Source: Planctomycetia bacterium (lineage in GTDB: Bacteria > Planctomycetota > Planctomycetia > Pirellulales > UBA1268). Taken from it: 64,000 nt of DNA. The notes under the pieces were generated by a model. It was not told the DNA's origin. It worked only from the letters and a program-made list of their open reading frames with translations, and did no database searches. The DNA lies in assembly GCA_046343855.1 (NCBI GenBank), contig JBKDMX010000046.1, positions 4,483 through 68,482 on the forward strand, read 5' to 3'. The translations under genes were made by a program, and so were the position numbers. Shown piece after piece: positions 21,635-38,821 of the stretch (positions are counted from its first letter, which is position 1; every line of letters begins with the position of its first letter).

Positions 21635-22477
21635 CTACTCTACCAGCACGATCGGTGTGGCGGCGGCCCCGACCGCGATCCTGCGGGCAAGGATGCGGAT
21701 GTAGGGCGGAATGAACGCGGCCCGGTGGGCGAAGGTGCCGGCTACCGCGCCCGGCTGGGTGTGGTCGGGCTCGCAGACATCCTCGATCGTGAAGCCGGCG
21801 GCGCAGATGCCGCCGAGCAGGGCCGAGAGCGAGTGGACGAATTCCTGCGTGCCGGCCTCGCGGAGCCGCGATGGCGGCTCCGGTGGAAGCGGCTGGCCGC
21901 CGGCCTGCGGATGCACGATTGCATAACGACCCAAAGCGTCGGGTTCGAGCGACGCCTGCAGGCTCGCGGGCGACTTGTGCTGGCTGACGTAGAGCCCGCC
22001 CGGCTTCGTCACGCGGGCCACCTCGCGAAACACCCGCGCCACGTCCGATAGGTAGCAGGTGCTCACGGGATGGATCACCAGGTCGAATCGGCCTTCCCTG
22101 AGCATCGAGAGATCGTCCATCGATCCCTGGAGGATCTCGAGGTCGATCTTCCGTTCGCGGGCGACCTGCCGATCGAGGTCGAGCATCGCCGGCGAGATGT
22201 CGAGCACGGTCACCTTCGCGCCGGCAGCCGCATAGAGCGGGCCATGTTTTCCACCGCCGGCGGCGAGGCAGAGCACGGCGAGACCGTCGAGCCGCCCGGG
22301 CAGCCACGAGCGCCCGGCCGCGCCAACCGAGCCGCCGCTGCCGAGCCACGCGCGCGGATCGCCGAACGCCTCGTCCACGGCCGGCCGCGCGAGCGCCGCC
22401 CTGCCCTGCGCGAGACGATCCCACGCGCGGGCATTCTGGTCGAGCACCGCCTCGCGCGACACGGCCGGCCGGTTCAT
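21635..22477 (-). CDS. class I SAM-dependent methyltransferase
   Basis: ATG at 22477 overlaps the upstream stop (ATGA). Motif I VLCLAAGGG, VTVLDISPAML, TKPGGLYV. Confidence 0.8.
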   Translation of the reverse strand: MNRPAVSREAVLDQNARAWDRLAQGRAALARPAVDEAFGDPRAWLGSGGSVGAAGRSWLPGRLDGLAVLCLAAGGGKHGPLYAAAGAKVTVLDISPAMLDLDRQVARERKIDLEILQGSMDDLSMLREGRFDLVIHPVSTCYLSDVARVFREVARVTKPGGLYVSQHKSPASLQASLEPDALGRYAIVHPQAGGQPLPPEPPSRLREAGTQEFVHSLSALLGGICAAGFTIEDVCEPDHTQPGAVAGTFAHRAAFIPPYIRILARRIAVGAAATPIVLVE

Positions 22478-23274
22478 CCCGCCCGCGCCCGCCGCCGCCA
22501 CGCGATCCACGCCGCAGCCCCGCAGGCCGCGAGCACGAAGCCCGACGGCTCGGGCACGGCGTACGTCAGGTTGTCCATCGCGAAATAGGCGGGGGTATTC
22601 AACCCGTAGTCGCCAACGTCACTTCCAGCAAATGAAAACGCCAGGCTGTCGATGGTGTCCAAGCCGCTGAGATCGAACCAGTTCCAACCCGATCGGACAC
22701 CAACGGGCGTTGCACCGCGCAGGTCAGCGAGAAAAAATTCCACGGAACCCACCGTTGCGCCATTCCGTGATCCCGTGGCGGTGACCGAGAACCAGTCGCC
22801 CGGTCCCAGCGGAATTGAGAATCCTTCCGGATCTGTTTCTGTCATGATGCCGTACGCATAAGTCGTATTGGCGATCCGGAAACCGCTGGCCTTGACCGGC
22901 TCCGAAAACACGATGGCCGCGGCGCTCGAGTAGGCGACCGCATAGTTCGTCGACTGATAGCCGCCGCCAGGTTTTGAGGCGTATTGATTGGTCCACGTGC
23001 CGTCGGTCGTGTTTACGACGTTCGAGATGGCAAAGCCGCTCCAATAAGGGAAATTCCATGTGGCGTCGATGCCGAACGTGTTGGAAAACGACACCCCTTC
23101 AAACTGAAAAGGCACACTGACAGAGCCGCCCGGCGACAACGTGCCGGGATTCCCGTTGAGGTAACCGCTCGAGGGCATACTCGCGCTCTCGAACGTAATG
23201 ACGTCAGCTTTTACAGCGATGTTCGCGGTGATCACCAGGGCGACAAGCGTGCAGATACTCTTGCGCAGGTTCAT
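22474..23274 (-). CDS. PEP-CTERM sorting-domain secreted protein (DUF4465-like N-domain, tentative)
   Basis: ATG at 23274, signal peptide, C-terminal VPEPSGFVLAACGAAAWIAWRRR. Confidence 0.75.
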   Translation of the reverse strand: MNLRKSICTLVALVITANIAVKADVITFESASMPSSGYLNGNPGTLSPGGSVSVPFQFEGVSFSNTFGIDATWNFPYWSGFAISNVVNTTDGTWTNQYASKPGGGYQSTNYAVAYSSAAAIVFSEPVKASGFRIANTTYAYGIMTETDPEGFSIPLGPGDWFSVTATGSRNGATVGSVEFFLADLRGATPVGVRSGWNWFDLSGLDTIDSLAFSFAGSDVGDYGLNTPAYFAMDNLTYAVPEPSGFVLAACGAAAWIAWRRRARAG

Positions 23275-24113
23275 GGGGCACTCCAAGGGGAGGTGAGGCT
23301 CTCGCCGCCTGACCGCGTGATCGCGGCGGCGAGAATGCGGAGGTCTGTCGATTCCGCAATAAGGTGGACGGAACCGTCGCCGGCGAGGCCGTGGGCTCCT
23401 TGGGGATGGCGACTGCGAATTTCGTCCTCCCAGGTCGGCCAATTGACCGCGTAACGCTGGTCGAAGAGGTTGTAGCCGTTGATCCACTGGCCATCGGGCC
23501 AGGCTGCAGCGGCGCATTCGCCCACGAATATCGTCCGTGAAAGGCCGTCGGGGATTTCCCGTTCCGCAAAGCCGCGATCGTTGACAAACACACCTTTCGC
23601 AGGATTGTTCGGCGCAAAGATCCGCTCGCCGTTGAGGCCGCCGTAATCGCTTCCGCCAAAGCCATGAACGATCCCCCCTTGCCGGTCAGCCGATGGGCAA
23701 AGGAATACCGTTATCGCGGTCTTCGCAGCGGCTGCATTCGCCGGGTCGTCATAAGGCTTGGTCAGATCGAGGCGATCGGCGATTTCCTGGGCTTCAAGCC
23801 ACGGCAGTATCCAGGCGCTCCACGCCAGGTTGCGTTTCTGTCTCTCGATCGCAGTCGTCGCATTTGGCATTCTCCACTCCGTGCAGCCCACCGGAAACTT
23901 CCGGGTGGCCAGCAGATGCCCGTGGAGCGCGCAGCCGATATGACGGAGATTGTTCGCGCAACTCACCCGCCGGGCCGCCTCGCGGGCCGACTGCACGGCC
24001 GGGAGCAGGAGCGCGACGAGCGCGGCCACGATCGCCACGACGACGAGCAACTCGACGAGCGTCATGCCAACGCGGGAACGCGCGGCAGGTTTCGCGGGAA
24101 TGGTCGTGTCCAT
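23271..24113 (-). CDS. DUF1559 / H-X9-DG family protein with prepilin-type N-terminal methylation motif
   Basis: ATG at 24113. GMTLVELLVVVAI, then AREAARR..C.NNL. C-terminal H-PQGAHGLAG-DG (H-X9-DG). Confidence 0.85.
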   Translation of the reverse strand: MDTTIPAKPAARSRVGMTLVELLVVVAIVAALVALLLPAVQSAREAARRVSCANNLRHIGCALHGHLLATRKFPVGCTEWRMPNATTAIERQKRNLAWSAWILPWLEAQEIADRLDLTKPYDDPANAAAAKTAITVFLCPSADRQGGIVHGFGGSDYGGLNGERIFAPNNPAKGVFVNDRGFAEREIPDGLSRTIFVGECAAAAWPDGQWINGYNLFDQRYAVNWPTWEDEIRSRHPQGAHGLAGDGSVHLIAESTDLRILAAAITRSGGESLTSPWSAP

Positions 24114-24590
24114 ACGCTGCGGGCGCACGCAAGCGCATCGCAAACCCCGGAGGTGAGCGCAGCCCGAACCCGGACCATTCACACCATCGGCGGCGCGATG
24201 CTTGCAGGAGCGTTGCTCGAAGACCTGTCGACCGGCCGCACCGGACTATTCCGGCGCCACCGTGCCTGCCTCCCCGCCCTCGCAGCTTGGCATGCTCTTG
24301 AAAACTGGTAGGTCTTCTGACTCCCAGACTCAGCCGGCTGCATGCCTTCTCGCGAGCAACGAGGCTTTCGCCGCGCCATCGCAATGGCCAGACCACAGCC
24401 AGCCTCGTCGCCTGGATACAGCGGCGGGGCCGTCCCGGAATCACACCGGAGTTCCCTGTTTGCCCATCGAAAGCAGATGCGATCGCTAGGCCACCAGAAT
24501 CGTGAAGGGCAATCTATCGGGGGGTGGGAGCCTGTCAAGCGGCGCCGGTTTCACTCGCCTGACCGGCAGACTTTCACACGCGTCTCGAGC

Positions 24591-24644: not shown

Positions 24645-24920
24645 TGCGGTCTCGCGCCGCATAGTTTACGCATGCGGAAAGCGTGGCATTTCTTACCCAA
24701 CGCGCAGCCGTAAGTCGTTGCCATAAAAAAACTTGGAGACACTCAAGCCGCCTTCGTCCATCCGTCGATAGCCACCTTGACCCCCGGGGCAATCACTGTG
24801 CCCGTCGGGCAACCAGGGGGCGGCAGCAACCTGCAATGCTTCGAGTCACGGAATGGCTCGACAGGCCTGTCGCGGAAAAGTTCGTGGATCACAACCTCGG
24901 GGCAACGAAGCCTCAAGAAC

Positions 24921-24934
24921 GGAAGTCGACTTCC
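24921..24934. promoter_or_regulatory. perfect 14-bp palindrome upstream of the Cys-rich protein gene
   Basis: GGAAGTCGACTTCC, 33 nt upstream of ATG 24967. Confidence 0.35.
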
Positions 24935-24966
24935 GGGTGCTCCACAAGCAAAGGAGATGTGGCTCG

Positions 24967-25788
24967 ATGAAGCGTATGATGTTCCTCGGTGCGCTGGTTC
25001 TCGGTGTCACCGTTTGTAGCCAGTCTTTTGGTTTCGAGCTCCTTGACCGGATGCTCGGCCACAAGGGCTGCACCTCGTGCTGTGAGCCCGGCTGCGACGC
25101 CGGCAATGGATGCTGTGAGCCTGGCTGCGGTGCCGGCAACGGCTGTGCGGAACCGGCCTGCGGTGCTGGTAATGGGTGTGCGGAGCCCGCTTGCGACGCC
25201 GGTGCCGGCTGCTGCGAGCCGAGCTGCGGTGCGGCGTCTTGCTGCGGTGTTCGGAAGAAGCATGACCTCTTCGGCGGGCTGAAGGGCCTGTTCGAAAAGT
25301 GCAAGCGGAAGCACCACGGCTGCACCGACAGCTGCTGCGGTGAGCCCGATTGCGGTGCTGGCAACGGTTGCGCCGAGCCCGCTTGCGGTGCTGGCAACGG
25401 CTGTGCGGAACCGGCGTGCGACGCTGGTGCCGGCTGCTGCGAGCCCAGCTGCGGTGCGGCTTCTTGCTGCGGGACCCGTGCTCGGAAGTGCCGTGGCACC
25501 CCGATCCTTGACCTGCTCAAGGCGATCCACGAAGCGAAGAAGGATTGCCTGAGCCGTCGTCGTGCCAGCTGCTGCGATAGCTGCTGCAACGACCCGGATT
25601 GTGGTGCTGGCAACGGCTGCTGCGAGCCCGCCTGTGGCGCTGCCGGCAACGGCTGCTGCGAGCCGGCTTGCGGTGCGGCCTCGACTCCGGTCGAAGCGAC
25701 CCCGGCCGCCCCGACCCCCGATGCCTCGGCTTCGGCCAAGGTCCCGGGCAAGGTCGTGGCGGTGAGCCGCACGGTTGCTGCCAAGTAA
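24967..25788 (+). CDS. secreted Cys-rich repeat protein (EP-x-C-G-A-G-N-G-C repeats), family not recognised
   Basis: AAGGAG at 24951-24956, ATG at 24967, signal peptide, about 44 Cys in 273 aa. Own terminator at 25843-25881. Confidence 0.7.
   Translation: MKRMMFLGALVLGVTVCSQSFGFELLDRMLGHKGCTSCCEPGCDAGNGCCEPGCGAGNGCAEPACGAGNGCAEPACDAGAGCCEPSCGAASCCGVRKKHDLFGGLKGLFEKCKRKHHGCTDSCCGEPDCGAGNGCAEPACGAGNGCAEPACDAGAGCCEPSCGAASCCGTRARKCRGTPILDLLKAIHEAKKDCLSRRRASCCDSCCNDPDCGAGNGCCEPACGAAGNGCCEPACGAASTPVEATPAAPTPDASASAKVPGKVVAVSRTVAAK
25114..25490 (+). repeat. intragenic duplication of a ~45-aa Cys-rich block (period ~226 nt) made of ~36-nt sub-repeats
   Basis: CEPGCGAGNGCAEPACGAGNGCAEPACDAGAGCCEPSCGAASCCG recurs as GEPDCGAGNGCAEPACGAGNGCAEPACDAGAGCCEPSCGAASCCG. 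Confidence 0.85.
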
Positions 25789-25842
25789 GGAGTGAATAGG
25801 TCGAAGCGGTAGAAACACCGTTGCCCGACTTCGGTCAGTGAG

Positions 25843-25881
25843 CTCCGCCCGGGAGGAAACTCCCGGGCGGAGTCGTTTTTT
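25843..25881 (+). terminator. rho-independent terminator of the Cys-rich protein gene
   Basis: CTCCGCCCGGGA-GGAAAC-TCCCGGGCGGAG, a perfect 12-bp stem, then TCGTTTTTT. Confidence 0.8.
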
Positions 25882-25882
25882 G

Positions 25883-25968
25883 GAAAAAGGTGTCAGGACT
25901 CTTTTCCGGCCAAAAAAGTGCCGGATCCCGAAAAAGTGACTTCGGAAAAGAGTCCTGACACCTTTTTC
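25883..25968. repeat. family E long hairpin (26-bp perfect arms, 34-nt loop)
   Basis: GAAAAAGGTGTCAGGACTCTTTTCCG ... CGGAAAAGAGTCCTGACACCTTTTTC. Confidence 0.9.
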
Positions 25969-26653
25969 ACGCAAGCAGGGTGGCGGGGGGGCCGGAGCGT
26001 GCCACGCGGCCGGCGACCAGTTCGATGACCGTCGTCGCGGCCCGTTTCGCGAAGGTGTGGTCGTGGGTCACAACGACCATGGTCTGACCGGCGCGGGCGA
26101 GATCGACGATCACGTCGAGCACCTCCGCCGACATCGCCGGATCGAGGGCGCTCGTCGGCTCGTCGAAGAGCATCACCCGCGGCTGCATCGCCAGCGCCCG
26201 CGCGATCGCCACCCGCTGCTGCTGGCCACCCGAAAGGGTCGCCGGCCGGGCCGACGCGAACGAGGAGAGCCCCACCCGGTCGAGCAGGGCCAGCGCCCGC
26301 TCCCGCGCCGCCTCCAGCGGCACTCGCGCCACCACCCGCGGTGCGGTGGCCACGTTCTCGAGCACCGACATATTGGGGAAGAGATTGAACTGCTGAAACA
26401 CCATGCCCACATCGCGGCGCAGCCGCTCGAGCAGGCCCGGGTGATGCCCGCCCGGCGCAAGCGCGTGGCCCGCGATGCTGACGGCGCCGGAGTCGAAGTT
26501 CTCGAGGCCGTTGAGACACCGCAGGAGCGTGCTCTTGCCGCCGCCCGACGGGCCCACGATCGCCATCACCTCTCCCTCGGCCACGGCCAGGCTCACCGCG
26601 GAGAGCACCGGCACCGCCCCCCGCGCCTTCGAAAGCGCCTCGATCTCGATCAT
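25967..26653 (-). CDS. amino-acid ABC transporter ATP-binding protein
   Basis: ATG at 26653 overlaps the permease stop (ATGA). Walker A GPSGGGKST, LSGGQQQRVAIARAL, Walker B MLFDEPTSALD. Confidence 0.9.
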   Translation of the reverse strand: MIEIEALSKARGAVPVLSAVSLAVAEGEVMAIVGPSGGGKSTLLRCLNGLENFDSGAVSIAGHALAPGGHHPGLLERLRRDVGMVFQQFNLFPNMSVLENVATAPRVVARVPLEAARERALALLDRVGLSSFASARPATLSGGQQQRVAIARALAMQPRVMLFDEPTSALDPAMSAEVLDVIVDLARAGQTMVVVTHDHTFAKRAATTVIELVAGRVARSGPPATLLA

Positions 26654-28164
26654 GGCGACTTCTCCAGCCGTCCCTCGAACCACCGCGAGACGAGCGACAA
26701 GGGCCAGCTCATCGCGAGGTAGAGCAGCGCCGTCACGATCGCGAGCTCCACGATCCGACCGGTCGAGAGCGCGAGCACGCTATATCGCTTCGTCAGCTCG
26801 ATCACCGTGATCACCGAGCAGACGCTCGTGTCTTTGAAGAGCGCGATGAAGTCGCTCGTCACCGGCGGCATCACGAGCCGCACCGCCTGCGGCACGAGCA
26901 CGTACCGCAGCGCCTGCCACTTCGTCATGCCCAGCGACAGCGCCGCCTCGAACTGTCCGAGCGGCACGGCCTTGAGCCCAGCCCGGTAGATCTCCGACTC
27001 GTAGGCGGAATAATTGAGCGCGAGCCCGGCCACTGCGGCCACGAGCGCGGGCAGCGCGAGGCCGATCTTCGGCAGGAGAAAGAAGATCGCGTAGAGCTGA
27101 AGCATGAGCGGTGTGCCGCGCAGCACCTCCACGTAGCCGGCCAGGAGCGGCCTGAGCCACGCCGGCCCGTGGAGCCGCCCGATCGCCACGAAGAGCCCGA
27201 TCAGAACCGCCAGCGGAAACGCGGCGCAGGAGAGGAGCACCGTCATCCCCGCGGCCTTGAGCAACAGCGGCAGCGACTCGCGGGCGAGCTGCGCGAGGCT
27301 GCGGCGGCCTGCGGTCGGAATTTCGGCCGCATCGCGGAGCGCGAGCACCTGCTGGCGGCCGGCCAGATCCCAGCGGTCATACAGCGCCTTGAGCCGGCCG
27401 TCGGCGATGATCGTGCCGAGGGCTTCGTCGATCGCCGCGGAGAGCCGCGGCGTGTCTTGGGCGGTGAGGATCGTGTAGAGCCCGCCGCCGAACGGCCGGC
27501 CCACCATGCGCAGTCCGGCGAAGCGGTCGGCATAGAAATTGAAGATGCAGTCGTCCATCACGGCGGCGTCGAGCACGCCGCTTTGCACCTGTTCGAGCGA
27601 GTCGATCGTGCCGTCGTAGCCGATCACCTCGATCTCGAGGTCGGATCGCGAACGCATCACGATCTCCGCCGCAGAGCCGGTGAGCACGCCCACCCGCCAC
27701 CGACCGCCGGGGCCGAGGGCCGCGAGTTGCTCGAACGAGTCGAGCGGGCCGTCACGCCGGGCGAGCAACTGCAGCGAATAGGCAAAGTAGGGGCGCGAGC
27801 AGTGGTAATCGCGCCGCCGTTCGGGGATCAGCTCGATGCCGTTGATCACGCAGTCGGCGGCGCGACCGAGGAGCAGCGGCAGCCGATCCCATTGCCCCTG
27901 CTGAAACCGCGGCTTCACGCCGAGCTGCGCGGCGACGAGGCCGGCAAGTTCCACCTCGAAACCGGTCAGCCGGCCGGGGTCCTTCGGATCGAGGAAGACG
28001 TGCGGCCCGCCCCCTTCCTGATCGGCGGCCCACACCAGCTCGCCCCGCGCGATCACCGCATCGAGTTCCGCGCCGCTCGCCGCGAGCGCCATGCCCACGG
28101 CCACCACGATCGCGACGCACGTGCGAATCATCCCTGACAGCATCCGCATCCCGATTCCCTTCAT
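26650..28164 (-). CDS. fused periplasmic substrate-binding domain / permease of polar amino-acid ABC transporter
   Basis: Signal peptide, SBP_bac_3-like N-half (GFEVELA, DCVINGI), then His/Glu/Gln/Arg-type permease half (EAALSLGMTKWQALRYVLVPQA). Confidence 0.85.
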   Translation of the reverse strand: MKGIGMRMLSGMIRTCVAIVVAVGMALAASGAELDAVIARGELVWAADQEGGGPHVFLDPKDPGRLTGFEVELAGLVAAQLGVKPRFQQGQWDRLPLLLGRAADCVINGIELIPERRRDYHCSRPYFAYSLQLLARRDGPLDSFEQLAALGPGGRWRVGVLTGSAAEIVMRSRSDLEIEVIGYDGTIDSLEQVQSGVLDAAVMDDCIFNFYADRFAGLRMVGRPFGGGLYTILTAQDTPRLSAAIDEALGTIIADGRLKALYDRWDLAGRQQVLALRDAAEIPTAGRRSLAQLARESLPLLLKAAGMTVLLSCAAFPLAVLIGLFVAIGRLHGPAWLRPLLAGYVEVLRGTPLMLQLYAIFFLLPKIGLALPALVAAVAGLALNYSAYESEIYRAGLKAVPLGQFEAALSLGMTKWQALRYVLVPQAVRLVMPPVTSDFIALFKDTSVCSVITVIELTKRYSVLALSTGRIVELAIVTALLYLAMSWPLSLVSRWFEGRLEKSP

Positions 28165-38739: not shown

Positions 38740-38821
38740 AAAAGGTGTCAGGACTCTTTTCCCGACGCCGTTCTGTGGAAAACGGGACCGTTTGGACCGG
38801 AAAAGAGTCCTGACACCTTTT
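38740..38821. repeat. family E long hairpin (23-bp perfect arms, 36-nt loop)
   Basis: AAAAGGTGTCAGGACTCTTTTCC ... GGAAAAGAGTCCTGACACCTTTT. The arms are shared with 25883-25968 and the loops are unrelated. Confidence 0.9.

Follow-up and report, generated by a model that had tools for sequence, protein, structure and literature searches.

The locus considered here raises a question both of function and of control: what would a planctomycete do with an exported protein rich in short cysteine repeats, and how is its synthesis set? The gene lies in a 64,000-nucleotide (nt) stretch of DNA from a Planctomycetia bacterium of the Pirellulales (assembly GCA_046343855.1, contig JBKDMX010000046.1, positions 4,483 to 68,482 of the forward strand), hereafter the window, in whose own numbering it occupies 24967..25788 on the + strand, with the stop codon at 25786-25788. 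Of the 273 amino acids (aa) of its product, 44 are Cys (43 of them beyond residue 22), while Gly accounts for 43, Ala for 42 and Pro for 18. It can be stated with high confidence that this is a real gene forming its own stand-alone transcription unit, and with similar assurance that the protein belongs to a large, uncharacterised family found throughout the Pirellulales; export by the Sec pathway is very strongly predicted, and little doubt attaches to a long, conserved and structured 5' leader on the mRNA. As to function, the evidence leans modestly to a structural over a metal-binding reading, and it is tentatively suggested, at somewhat less than an even chance, that the protein may be an abundant disulfide-crosslinked component of the envelope or of a matrix.

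The recurrence of the same architecture in hundreds of homologues places the reality of the gene far beyond chance, and the pattern of substitution indicates which property of the sequence is being kept. Substitution entropy at codon positions 1, 2 and 3 is 5.5, 2.7 and 14.9, respectively, when 74 distinct orthologues from the window's clade are compared over the first 31 codons, the portion alignable without gaps. Within the gene itself, a 41-aa block (CGAGNGCAEPACGAGNGCAEPACDAGAGCCEPSCGAASCCG) is present in two copies that are 100% identical as protein and 86% identical as DNA, with 17 of 123 nucleotides differing, distributed 0/0/17 by codon position and all synonymous. Since the duplicates differ only synonymously and the orthologues diverge predominantly at third positions, selection acts on the amino acids of the repeat rather than on its DNA, and the exact repeat sequence, beyond its composition, is under strong purifying selection. 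The alternative, by which no protein is coded in the + frame and the signal stems from an antisense open reading frame (ORF) or a GC-rich tandem DNA repeat, draws on the two antisense ORFs, 24846..25784 and 24913..25974, that are indeed open in the window as previously described; of 78 loci, 68 have the codon-aligned frame open and 39 the other one. However, both are interrupted in distant relatives, whereas the + frame is conserved in the orthologues together with its signal peptide, Shine-Dalgarno (SD) sequence and terminator, and the codon-position data of both kinds run against it, such that this alternative may be regarded as refuted. The codon-aligned antisense frame remains open because its stops would require TTA, CTA and TCA sense codons, which are avoided in a 68%-GC genome, and the antisense ORFs are a by-product of GC content and codon usage. 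The choice of the + frame made in a preliminary description of this DNA is thus upheld on independent grounds, as are the ORF, its length and its Cys count. The gene is compositionally odd, with a third-position GC of 0.74 as compared to 0.89 in the neighbours at 25967-26683 and 26650-28164, and an unusual position-2 GC of 0.66; this profile reflects its content of Cys, Gly, Ala and Pro codons and, possibly, a distinct codon preference as well.

The signals that bound the transcription unit can be read directly from the sequence. An AAGGAG SD is found at 24951..24956 (+), 10 nt 5' of the ATG, as had been noted, and an intrinsic terminator at 25842..25883 (+) consists of a stem-loop at 25842-25873 with 14 pairs (11 of them G-C) and a GAAA loop, followed by a T-run; the gene thus has its own terminator as described, with a stem slightly longer than the 12 bp given earlier. 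In all clades, a strong terminator follows 60-95 nt after the stop codon. As both flanking genes lie on the opposite strand, one divergent upstream and one convergent downstream, the unit is monocistronic, in agreement with the preliminary description.

A single-sequence search of 5.8 billion proteins returned 170 homologues of the window protein, the closest with E 1e-175; a profile of distant members gathered at least 749 clusters at 90% identity; and an exhaustive HMMER scan of 1.84 billion representatives recovered 423 clusters at the 50% identity level, with E<=1e-10 for 235 of these; their members all stand alone at about 200-300 aa, are matched end to end and show no domain fusions. The gene is present in 282 GTDB species representatives, and all named members are from the Planctomycetota/Pirellulales, in freshwater, marine and saline samples. 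The identical protein occurs on 11 contigs in public collections, each time as a 'hypothetical protein'. Cultured carriers include Rosistilla oblonga CA51_05110 (QDV10661.1 / A0A518INE1) and Rosistilla ulvae EC9_06230 (QDS86461.1), with Novipirellula artificiosorum Poly41_12050 (TWU42904.1) and 'Ca. Laterigemmans baculatus' WP_164102195.1 as further carriers. These are true homologues (E 1e-8 to 1e-60 in single-sequence or profile searches), likewise annotated solely as 'hypothetical protein', which share the signal peptide, an FGF(E/D)LLDRMLG motif, Cys blocks, GGLLxKLF linkers and a PPAP..DPSA..RRVIQAS tail, and each is monocistronic with a long leader; they differ in having 33-50% identity to the window protein, repeats of CEPxCGCE type in place of CxEPxCGAGNG, and another gene neighbourhood. 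With Rosistilla and Novipirellula in culture, the question of function becomes directly testable. Close homologues with the same leader and synteny were also found in metagenome-assembled genomes labelled 'Candidatus Kuenenia stuttgartiensis', 'Kuenenia sp.', 'Planctomicrobium piriforme' or 'Chitinophagaceae' (loci L015, L023, L034, L039-L041, L043, L044, L050, L057, L065, L068, L075, L081 and L086); their gene content makes it almost certain that these are freshwater Pirellulales bins under wrong labels.

Members of the family were defined by a signal peptide, the motif [FY]GF[ED]LL[DN]RMLG at about residue 21, at least 12% Cys gathered in acidic blocks, basic linkers of GGLxxLF type, and a spacer rich in Pro together with a D[PA]SA…R tail, and the window protein has every one of these elements. 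What is constant across the family is the composition, Cys density, charge segregation and the terminal motifs that lack Cys. The invariant signature is QSFGFELLDRMLG, of the form [FY]GF[ED]LL[DN]RMLG from residue 21, in which G22, F23, L26, M29, L30 and G31 do not vary in 92 sequences, and P249, D252, S254, A255 and S267 are each kept in at least 90% of the same set. The linkers are basic and carry GGL(K/L)xLF or LLxxI/F motifs, a Pro-rich spacer follows the Cys blocks, and the tail takes the form P-x-x-D-[PA]-S-A...R(V/I)xxAS...[KRN]. Repeat number varies, from 0 to 17 EPxC units per member, and even within the window protein's own 90% cluster there are variants of 273, 279, 282 and 284 aa, which are repeat-number polymorphisms between close strains. 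The unit C(C/A)EPxCGAGNGC, put forward earlier as the defining repeat, is present in the window protein and is typical of the freshwater clade only, not of the family as a whole.

The layout of the window protein is regular. Eleven EPxC units and one DPxC unit, in the number previously given, stand at aa 40, 51, 62, 73, 84 / 126, 137, 148, 159 / 209, 220, 232, with a period of 11 aa (33 nt) and grouped 5 + 4 + 3; Tandem Repeats Finder and a repeat finder likewise recovered three arrays of 33-nt period, and a 163-nt block was found to recur 225 nt downstream at 80% identity. The block of about 45 aa that the preliminary description saw twice, and a third time in shorter form, corresponds to the identical 41-aa stretch and a shorter third block. 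At the N-terminus is a Sec-type signal peptide (MKRMMFLGALVLGVTVCSQSFG, 24967..25032, +) recognised by its n-region (KR), hydrophobic core and SQS/SFG cleavage region, a proposal made before and now borne out by the family, in which, wherever the start is called correctly, the FGFE motif almost always begins at residue 21. It has neither a twin-arginine motif nor a conserved lipobox, and signal peptidase I would fit, since the conserved feature is SQS-FGFE. Other fates of the product were considered and set aside. A lipoprotein is contradicted by VTVC in the window protein (Val at -1, against the lipobox [LVI][ASTVI][GAS]C) and by the absence of that Cys in several clades (GLSTQS, GISSPS): the Cys of the signal-peptide h/c region is not conserved across the family, and a VLGC- or VIGC-like box is found in some marine clades only. 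Export by the twin-arginine (Tat) pathway fails for want of the motif, and sorting of PEP-CTERM or sortase type is disfavoured by a tail (…DASAS…KVVAVSRTVAAK, or …DPSA…RRVIQAS…R) without a transmembrane helix, there being no hydrophobic helix in it and no PEP-CTERM match in Pfam scans of the window protein or of 56 family members. A formylglycine motif (CxPxR) was rejected because the repeat is CxPxC, with no Arg, and a precursor of a ribosomally synthesised and post-translationally modified peptide, or of radical S-adenosylmethionine (SAM) type, because no maturase lies nearby.

Behind the signal peptide, at or near the mature N-terminus, the signature FGFELLDRMLG (aa 21-31; 25027..25059, +) is predicted to be helical, with a predicted local distance difference test score (pLDDT) of 74-83. 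Cys block 1 (aa 32-92; 25060..25242, +) contains five 11-aa CxEPxCGAGNG units; it has 15 Cys, 7 acidic residues against a single basic one, no aromatics, and a pLDDT of 38-43. It is followed by basic linker 1 (aa 93-117, CGVRKKHDLFGGLKGLFEKCKRKHH; 25243..25317, +), with 8 basic and 2 acidic residues, 3 His, a short predicted helix at aa 106-110 and the GGL(K/L)xLF motif that is conserved family-wide. Cys block 2 (aa 118-170; 25318..25476, +), which holds the 41-aa duplicate of part of block 1, has 13 Cys, 7 acidic and 0 basic residues, and basic linker 2 (aa 171-203; 25477..25575, +), with 10 basic and 3 acidic residues, contains an amphipathic helix (...TPILDLLKAIHEAKKDCLSRRR...) at aa 179-203 with pLDDT 83-89. 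Cys block 3 (aa 204-237; 25576..25677, +) consists of three repeat units with 9 Cys, 5 acidic and 0 basic residues, and a Pro/Ala/Thr spacer leads, as sequence comparison shows, into the conserved C-terminal tail ...APTPDASAS...KVVAVSRTVAAK (25678..25785, +), the equivalent of which in distant clades is ...PPAPVVDPSA...RRVIQAS...R. The linkers had been described as basic and helical; both are basic, and it is the helix of linker 2 that is confidently predicted.

This layout invites two further explanations. By the first, the protein would be a polyprotein precursor cut at the dibasic linkers into small Cys-rich peptides, acting as antimicrobials or signals, which would account for K/R-dense linkers between near-identical Cys blocks. 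However, the linkers hold conserved hydrophobic helical motifs (GGLKGLF, ILDLLKAI) and not only cleavage sites, no protease, maturase, radical-SAM or export gene is adjacent, and conservation is highest in the motifs at the two termini, which points to a function of the protein as a whole; a polyprotein is accordingly held to be highly improbable. The second explanation concerns charge, which is strictly segregated in the window protein, the three Cys blocks having 19 acidic, 1 basic and 0 aromatic residues and the two linkers 18 basic and 5 acidic residues with 4 His. Pirellulales attach by holdfasts, and barnacle cement cp-20k, which is rich in Cys and charge, and the Cys-rich proteins of mussels offer analogues for a surface adhesive, coating or mineral-binding protein, e.g., a holdfast component, in which segments of opposite charge could drive self-association or coacervation and disulfides could then cure the material. 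A secreted protein with low-complexity repeats in variable number would suit such a role, although the argument is one of analogy, no polysaccharide or adhesin genes lie nearby, and nothing points to a crossing of the outer membrane, so that an adhesive is considered improbable.

The preliminary description recognised no named family, and neither did the searches. Pfam and NCBIfam scans of the window protein gave 0 matches at E<=10, and a sequence profile search of the Protein Data Bank gave only noise (E 1.7). Among 56 members taken from two alignments, Pfam scans at E<=1 touched only Keratin_B2 / Keratin_B2_2, in 5 of 56 with a best E of 0.002, and one further member has a precomputed PF13885 match; this is a weak, compositional resemblance and not homology, the window protein itself having no match to the keratin high-sulfur families (PF01500 / PF13885) and the family threshold not being reached. 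The same scans of the 56 members yielded no match to metallothionein models, to the YTV domain, or to the chlamydial OMP3/OMP6 (OmcA/OmcB) families, and metallothionein models also failed to match the window protein in Pfam and NCBIfam at E<=10. A search of the literature on Cys-rich proteins of Rhodopirellula and Planctomycetes and on metallothioneins found nothing on this family. With no characterised homologous family and no literature found, the family is, as judged from its sequences, new. AlphaFold2 models built from 41- and 92-sequence alignments have mean pLDDT values of 47 and 52; the Cys blocks score 35-43 with no fold found, and the only confident helices are those of the signal peptide with the N-terminal motif and of linker 2. 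A disulfide-stapled beta-solenoid, like that of the insect antifreeze proteins with 12-residue repeats, was considered and found no support in these models.

The control of the gene may reside in its leader, which, like the divergent operon headed by a cobalamin riboswitch described below, had been missed in the preliminary description. It was first hinted at by overlong gene calls that translate the upstream DNA in differing frames. The leader is 200-350 nt long and is found in the window at 24700-24966 (+), at L094 4650-5000, at L006 7430-8000 and at about 130 other loci; its structured core in the window, supported by conservation, RNAalifold and a covariance model, spans 24765..24966 (+), and by analogy with marine relatives, transcription in the window's clade probably starts near 24700. 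Over 75 distinct loci, mean pairwise identity at 24783-24903 is 0.92, as compared to 0.80 at third codon positions of the most conserved coding segment and 0.52 in adjacent intergenic DNA, and the SD region (24944-24966) reaches 0.97. Single-nucleotide indels inside the core rule out that it codes for protein. The predicted helix H1 pairs 24765-24773 with 24953-24962 in the SD region, covering the GGAG of the SD, and is invariant in the freshwater clade, but locus L116 has a compensatory A-U to G-C change. The remaining helices, all on the + strand, are H2 (24782-85/24816-19), H3 (24787-93/24798-803), H5 (24820-26/24867-73), H6 (24830-33/24862-65), H7 (24841-48/24854-61, with the loop CGGAA) and H8 (24884-92/24937-45). 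In the RNAalifold fold of the window's clade, 99.3% of cells are paired, with 6 covarying pairs against 2.1±0.9 in shuffles and 0-1 in slid controls, the structure being derived from the same alignment; an example of compensatory change is GCGGCAG/CTGCCGC to GCGACAG/CTGTCGC. A covariance model of the freshwater leader (R1) had the leader site as its sole match in the window, at 223.8 bits.

The freshwater model applied to marine leaders recovered only the closing helix with the SD and not the whole leader, and the clades were analysed separately because no single family-wide alignment of the leader could be made. For 21 diverse marine and saline leaders, a shared arrangement was specified by hand and then tested: 90.9% of cells are paired, as opposed to 36-44% in slid controls; 15 pairs are changed on both sides, against 9.2±1.8 in shuffles (1 of 500 reaching 15); and 51 cells have both-side changes, against 17.4±3.6 in shuffles (0 of 500). 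Marine helix 4 (GAGGUG...CACCUC) covaries strongly, while helix 1 (ACGAAGUC...GACUUCGU) is nearly invariant and has its 3' arm in the loop of helix 4, suggesting either a pseudoknot or alternative structures; in these leaders, G-U pairs identify + as the structured strand. A pairing of TTGGAG...CTCCAA with the start codon in marine clade A was considered and dropped, as it is not conserved in other clades. Rfam 15 gave no match on the + strand at E<=1 for the window, marine or Rosistilla leader.

One element of the leader is shared by nearly all. A hairpin with GGA in its loop is present in 128 of 129 distinct leaders from all clades, as compared to 42% of shuffled leaders under a lenient criterion; in the window it is H7 (UCGAGUCA-CGGAA-UGGCUCGA, 24841..24861, +), which is invariant in the freshwater clade. 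From clade to clade its stem sequence changes, whereas the ...CA-N-GGA-(N)-UG... context persists, and the SD, AAGGAG or AGGGAG, supplies a second GGA. This context resembles the CsrA/RsmA consensus, and is offered as a lead only. Leaders under CsrA/RsmA control, such as that of B. subtilis hag, share with it the GGA in a hairpin loop, the second GGA in the SD region and, as target, the monocistronic mRNA of an abundant exported protein. In the Pirellulales leaders, for which CsrA binding is a candidate only, the sites are 100-260 nt apart, a longer spacing than in the classical examples. These leaders also have further helices that covary and, in the marine clades, a topology of pseudoknot type, more than a simple CsrA site would call for. 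The leader may be put forward as a new candidate cis-regulatory RNA, of CsrA type or riboswitch type, and as a conserved structured RNA, backed by covariation and clear in its regulatory logic, it would add to the very small set of cis-regulatory RNAs known from the Planctomycetes-Verrucomicrobia-Chlamydiae (PVC) superphylum.

The leader sequences also bear on expression. In marine clade A, the 5' ends of five contigs of about 1.1-1.2 kb, drawn from different samples, fall at -339 to -350 relative to the ATG, and in two more an Illumina adapter is fused at about -338 and -333 (together L103, L105, L109, L110, L115, L118 and L125); at least seven independent marine contigs thus begin no more than about 17 nt apart, at -333 to -350, while three short contigs of clade B (L146, L149 and L151) start at -328 to -340. 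These starts fall 8-16 nt downstream of a conserved CGATA..GATACAGA box, which longer genomic contigs read through. The short contigs look like assembled full-length monocistronic transcripts, to judge from their ends, and if so, they would imply a high abundance of the mRNA and a transcription start 8-16 nt past the box.

The proposal of a crosslinked envelope protein rests first on the cysteines. In 256 distinct mature sequences there are on average 41 Cys per protein (range 13-66), or 17.8%, with Trp at about 0% and Tyr at 0.3%; the gaps between successive Cys are CC in 21%, CxC in 6.7%, CxxC in 6.3%, Cx3C in 25%, Cx4C in 13% and Cx5C in 18%, so that CC and Cx3C to Cx5C make up 77% (Cx3C-Cx5C alone 56%), against 13% for CxC and CxxC. 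This spacing resembles that of keratin-associated proteins, of which the CCxPxC unit is the pattern, more than that of metallothioneins, and the number of Cys is odd in 51% of sequences, which removes any constraint that all be paired within one chain, as crosslinks between molecules would allow. The same reading is favoured by Sec export, which delivers the protein to an oxidising compartment. The presence in so many species with a single architecture and stable synteny, and with no metal genes nearby, is the behaviour of a core gene rather than an accessory resistance gene, and the consensus SD, long structured leader, strong terminator and transcript-like contigs are the kind of signals expected of a heavily expressed structural gene. 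The model that follows proposes that, after export, the cysteines of the CC / Cx3C / Cx4-5C spacings would form intra- and intermolecular disulfides in the oxidising periplasm or at the cell surface, giving a crosslinked, detergent-resistant protein network, while docking of the protein to membranes or partner proteins may fall to the conserved helix at its N-terminus, the amphipathic basic linkers and the tail, and repeat number could tune its size. The leader would set production post-transcriptionally, its 5' end pairing with the SD region, and the GGA-loop hairpin probably binds a trans-acting factor, for which a CsrA-type protein is a candidate.

Such a network would be a non-homologous functional analogue of the keratin-associated and the chlamydial cysteine-rich envelope proteins, and the family as a whole resembles two known kinds of protein, namely Cys-rich crosslinked envelope proteins and metallothioneins. 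Mammalian keratin-associated (high-sulfur B2) proteins, PF01500 / PF13885, the only Pfam families touched by any member, likewise have short repeats of CCxPxC type, 15-25% Cys, low complexity and no autonomous fold, and they form a matrix by extensive disulfide crosslinking; they differ in being cytoplasmic and eukaryotic, without signal peptide, basic helical linkers or conserved terminal motifs, and no homology is implied. The PVC superphylum has precedents of its own. Chlamydial OmcA and OmcB are exported Cys-rich envelope proteins of this group that are thought to lend rigidity through disulfide crosslinking. Planctomycete YTV proteins are also exported, Cys-rich envelope proteins of the PVC group thought to confer rigidity by disulfide crosslinking, and they were found in preparations of planctomycete cell walls, which have been proposed to be mainly protein (PMC8567305). 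Neither YTV nor OmcA/OmcB has any sequence relationship to the present family, and YTV was found in wall preparations whereas the literature searched holds no experiment on this family.

Several observations weigh against a crosslinked envelope protein. AlphaFold2 gives the Cys blocks no fold (pLDDT 37-43) even with 92 sequences, which would suit a metal-dependent fold equally well; the keratin matches are compositional; the wall preparations yielded YTV proteins, and the literature searched is silent on the Pirellulales family; metal binding, too, would be suited by the acidic residues that adjoin almost all Cys pairs and by the His of the linkers; the status of the short contigs as transcripts is inferred; and the CsrA idea is a resemblance only. 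The serious rival, if on balance rather unlikely, is a periplasmic metallothionein-like metal-thiolate protein, whose acidic Cys blocks, disordered without metal, would wrap Zn(II), Cu(I), Cd(II) or similar, the metal being buffered or stored outside the cytoplasm and the leader coupling synthesis to metal status. The high Cys content with essentially no Trp or Tyr and blocks free of aromatics, the lack of a predicted autonomous fold, the random parity of Cys number, the His clustered beside the blocks (KRKHHGC, KKH) with Asp or Glu in every repeat, the variable repeat number and a conserved, riboswitch-like leader with a possible pseudoknot in marine clades are all compatible with this. Metallothioneins of SmtA/BmtA type and Csp proteins are similarly small, high in Cys and poor in aromatics, metallothioneins lacking a fold when metal-free, and Csp1, an exported Cys-rich Cu(I) storage protein, provides a precedent. 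However, the Csp proteins are folded four-helix bundles, whereas no fold is predicted for the Cys blocks, and the CxC and CxxC spacings typical of metallothioneins are a minority here, where CC and Cx3-5C dominate, and no metallothionein model matches any member scanned. In addition, free thiolates would be at a disadvantage in the oxidising compartment to which the Sec pathway leads, the gene is spread across species in the manner of a lineage core gene, among the known metal riboswitches of Rfam none matches the leader, and neither conserved neighbourhood contains a metal transporter, sensor, resistance or other metal-homeostasis gene, or a thiol-redox gene.

The protein might instead buffer thiol redox state outside the cytoplasm, serve as a sacrificial antioxidant or store cysteine (sulfur), roles for which extreme Cys content, apparent disorder and apparently high expression would be fitting. 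However, the exact repeat sequence, its E-P and G positions and the terminal motifs without Cys are preserved beyond what such a role would need, and no reductase partner is linked, making this decidedly improbable. Returning to the crosslinked envelope protein, a bolder version, by which it would be the major cystine-rich crosslinked envelope protein of the Pirellulales, its synthesis gated by a new class of leader RNA that senses a CsrA-like protein or a small ligand, must be called unlikely, the alternative to it being a periplasmic metallothionein controlled by a metal-responsive riboswitch of a new kind. What the planctomycete envelope is made of has been argued over for decades, as protein wall versus peptidoglycan and in view of its cystine- and proline-rich sacculi, and Pirellulales abound in lakes, in oceans and in biofilms. 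An exported protein found throughout this lineage, one-sixth of it Cys and apparently highly expressed, is a so far unnoticed candidate for an envelope component or, alternatively, for a new kind of extracytoplasmic metal buffer. If true, the bolder envelope reading would help to explain the classical protein-rich, cystine- and proline-rich planctomycete wall.

The genes around the Cys-rich gene fall into two arrangements, with synteny stable within lineages; a neighbour common to the freshwater and marine arrangements was sought as a conserved partner, and none was found, nor is there a paralogue of the Cys-rich gene within the window. In the marine/Rosistilla-type arrangement (L006-L009, L091, L094, L119 and L143), the genes divergently upstream encode a small cupin and a pair of BamB-like (PQQ_2) beta-propeller proteins, each about 750-830 aa long, with a response regulator beyond the propellers in annotated loci, and downstream is LpxB, in whose place two loci have a transglutaminase-like protein. 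In the freshwater clade, an amino-acid-type ATP-binding cassette (ABC) transporter lies convergently downstream, and the divergent upstream operon is headed by a cobalamin riboswitch, in the window RF00174 at 24290-24513 on the - strand (78 bits, E 5e-19), which faces away from the Cys-rich gene and is preceded by a promoter-like TTGACA-16-TAGATT at 24538-24511 (-). The operon includes a DUF1559 protein (23271-24182, -) and a DUF4465 protein with a PEP-CTERM tail (within 22474-23517, -), followed further on, in syntenic relatives, by methyltransferase, ABM and GATase proteins. As DUF4465 has recently been shown to be a B12-binding domain (PMC13398666), the operon looks like a planctomycete system for scavenging B12, with a B12 binder that is sorted by exosortase. 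Finally, a palindromic element of about 90 nt, with the arms AAAAAGGTGTCAGGACTCTTTTCCG / CGGAAAAGAGTCCTGACACCTTTTT, occurs at 25880-25972, just past the terminator of the Cys-rich gene, and again at 38744-38817; it gives spurious matches to microRNA precursors in Rfam and is probably an intergenic repeat resembling repetitive extragenic palindromic (REP) sequences or miniature inverted-repeat transposable elements (MITEs).

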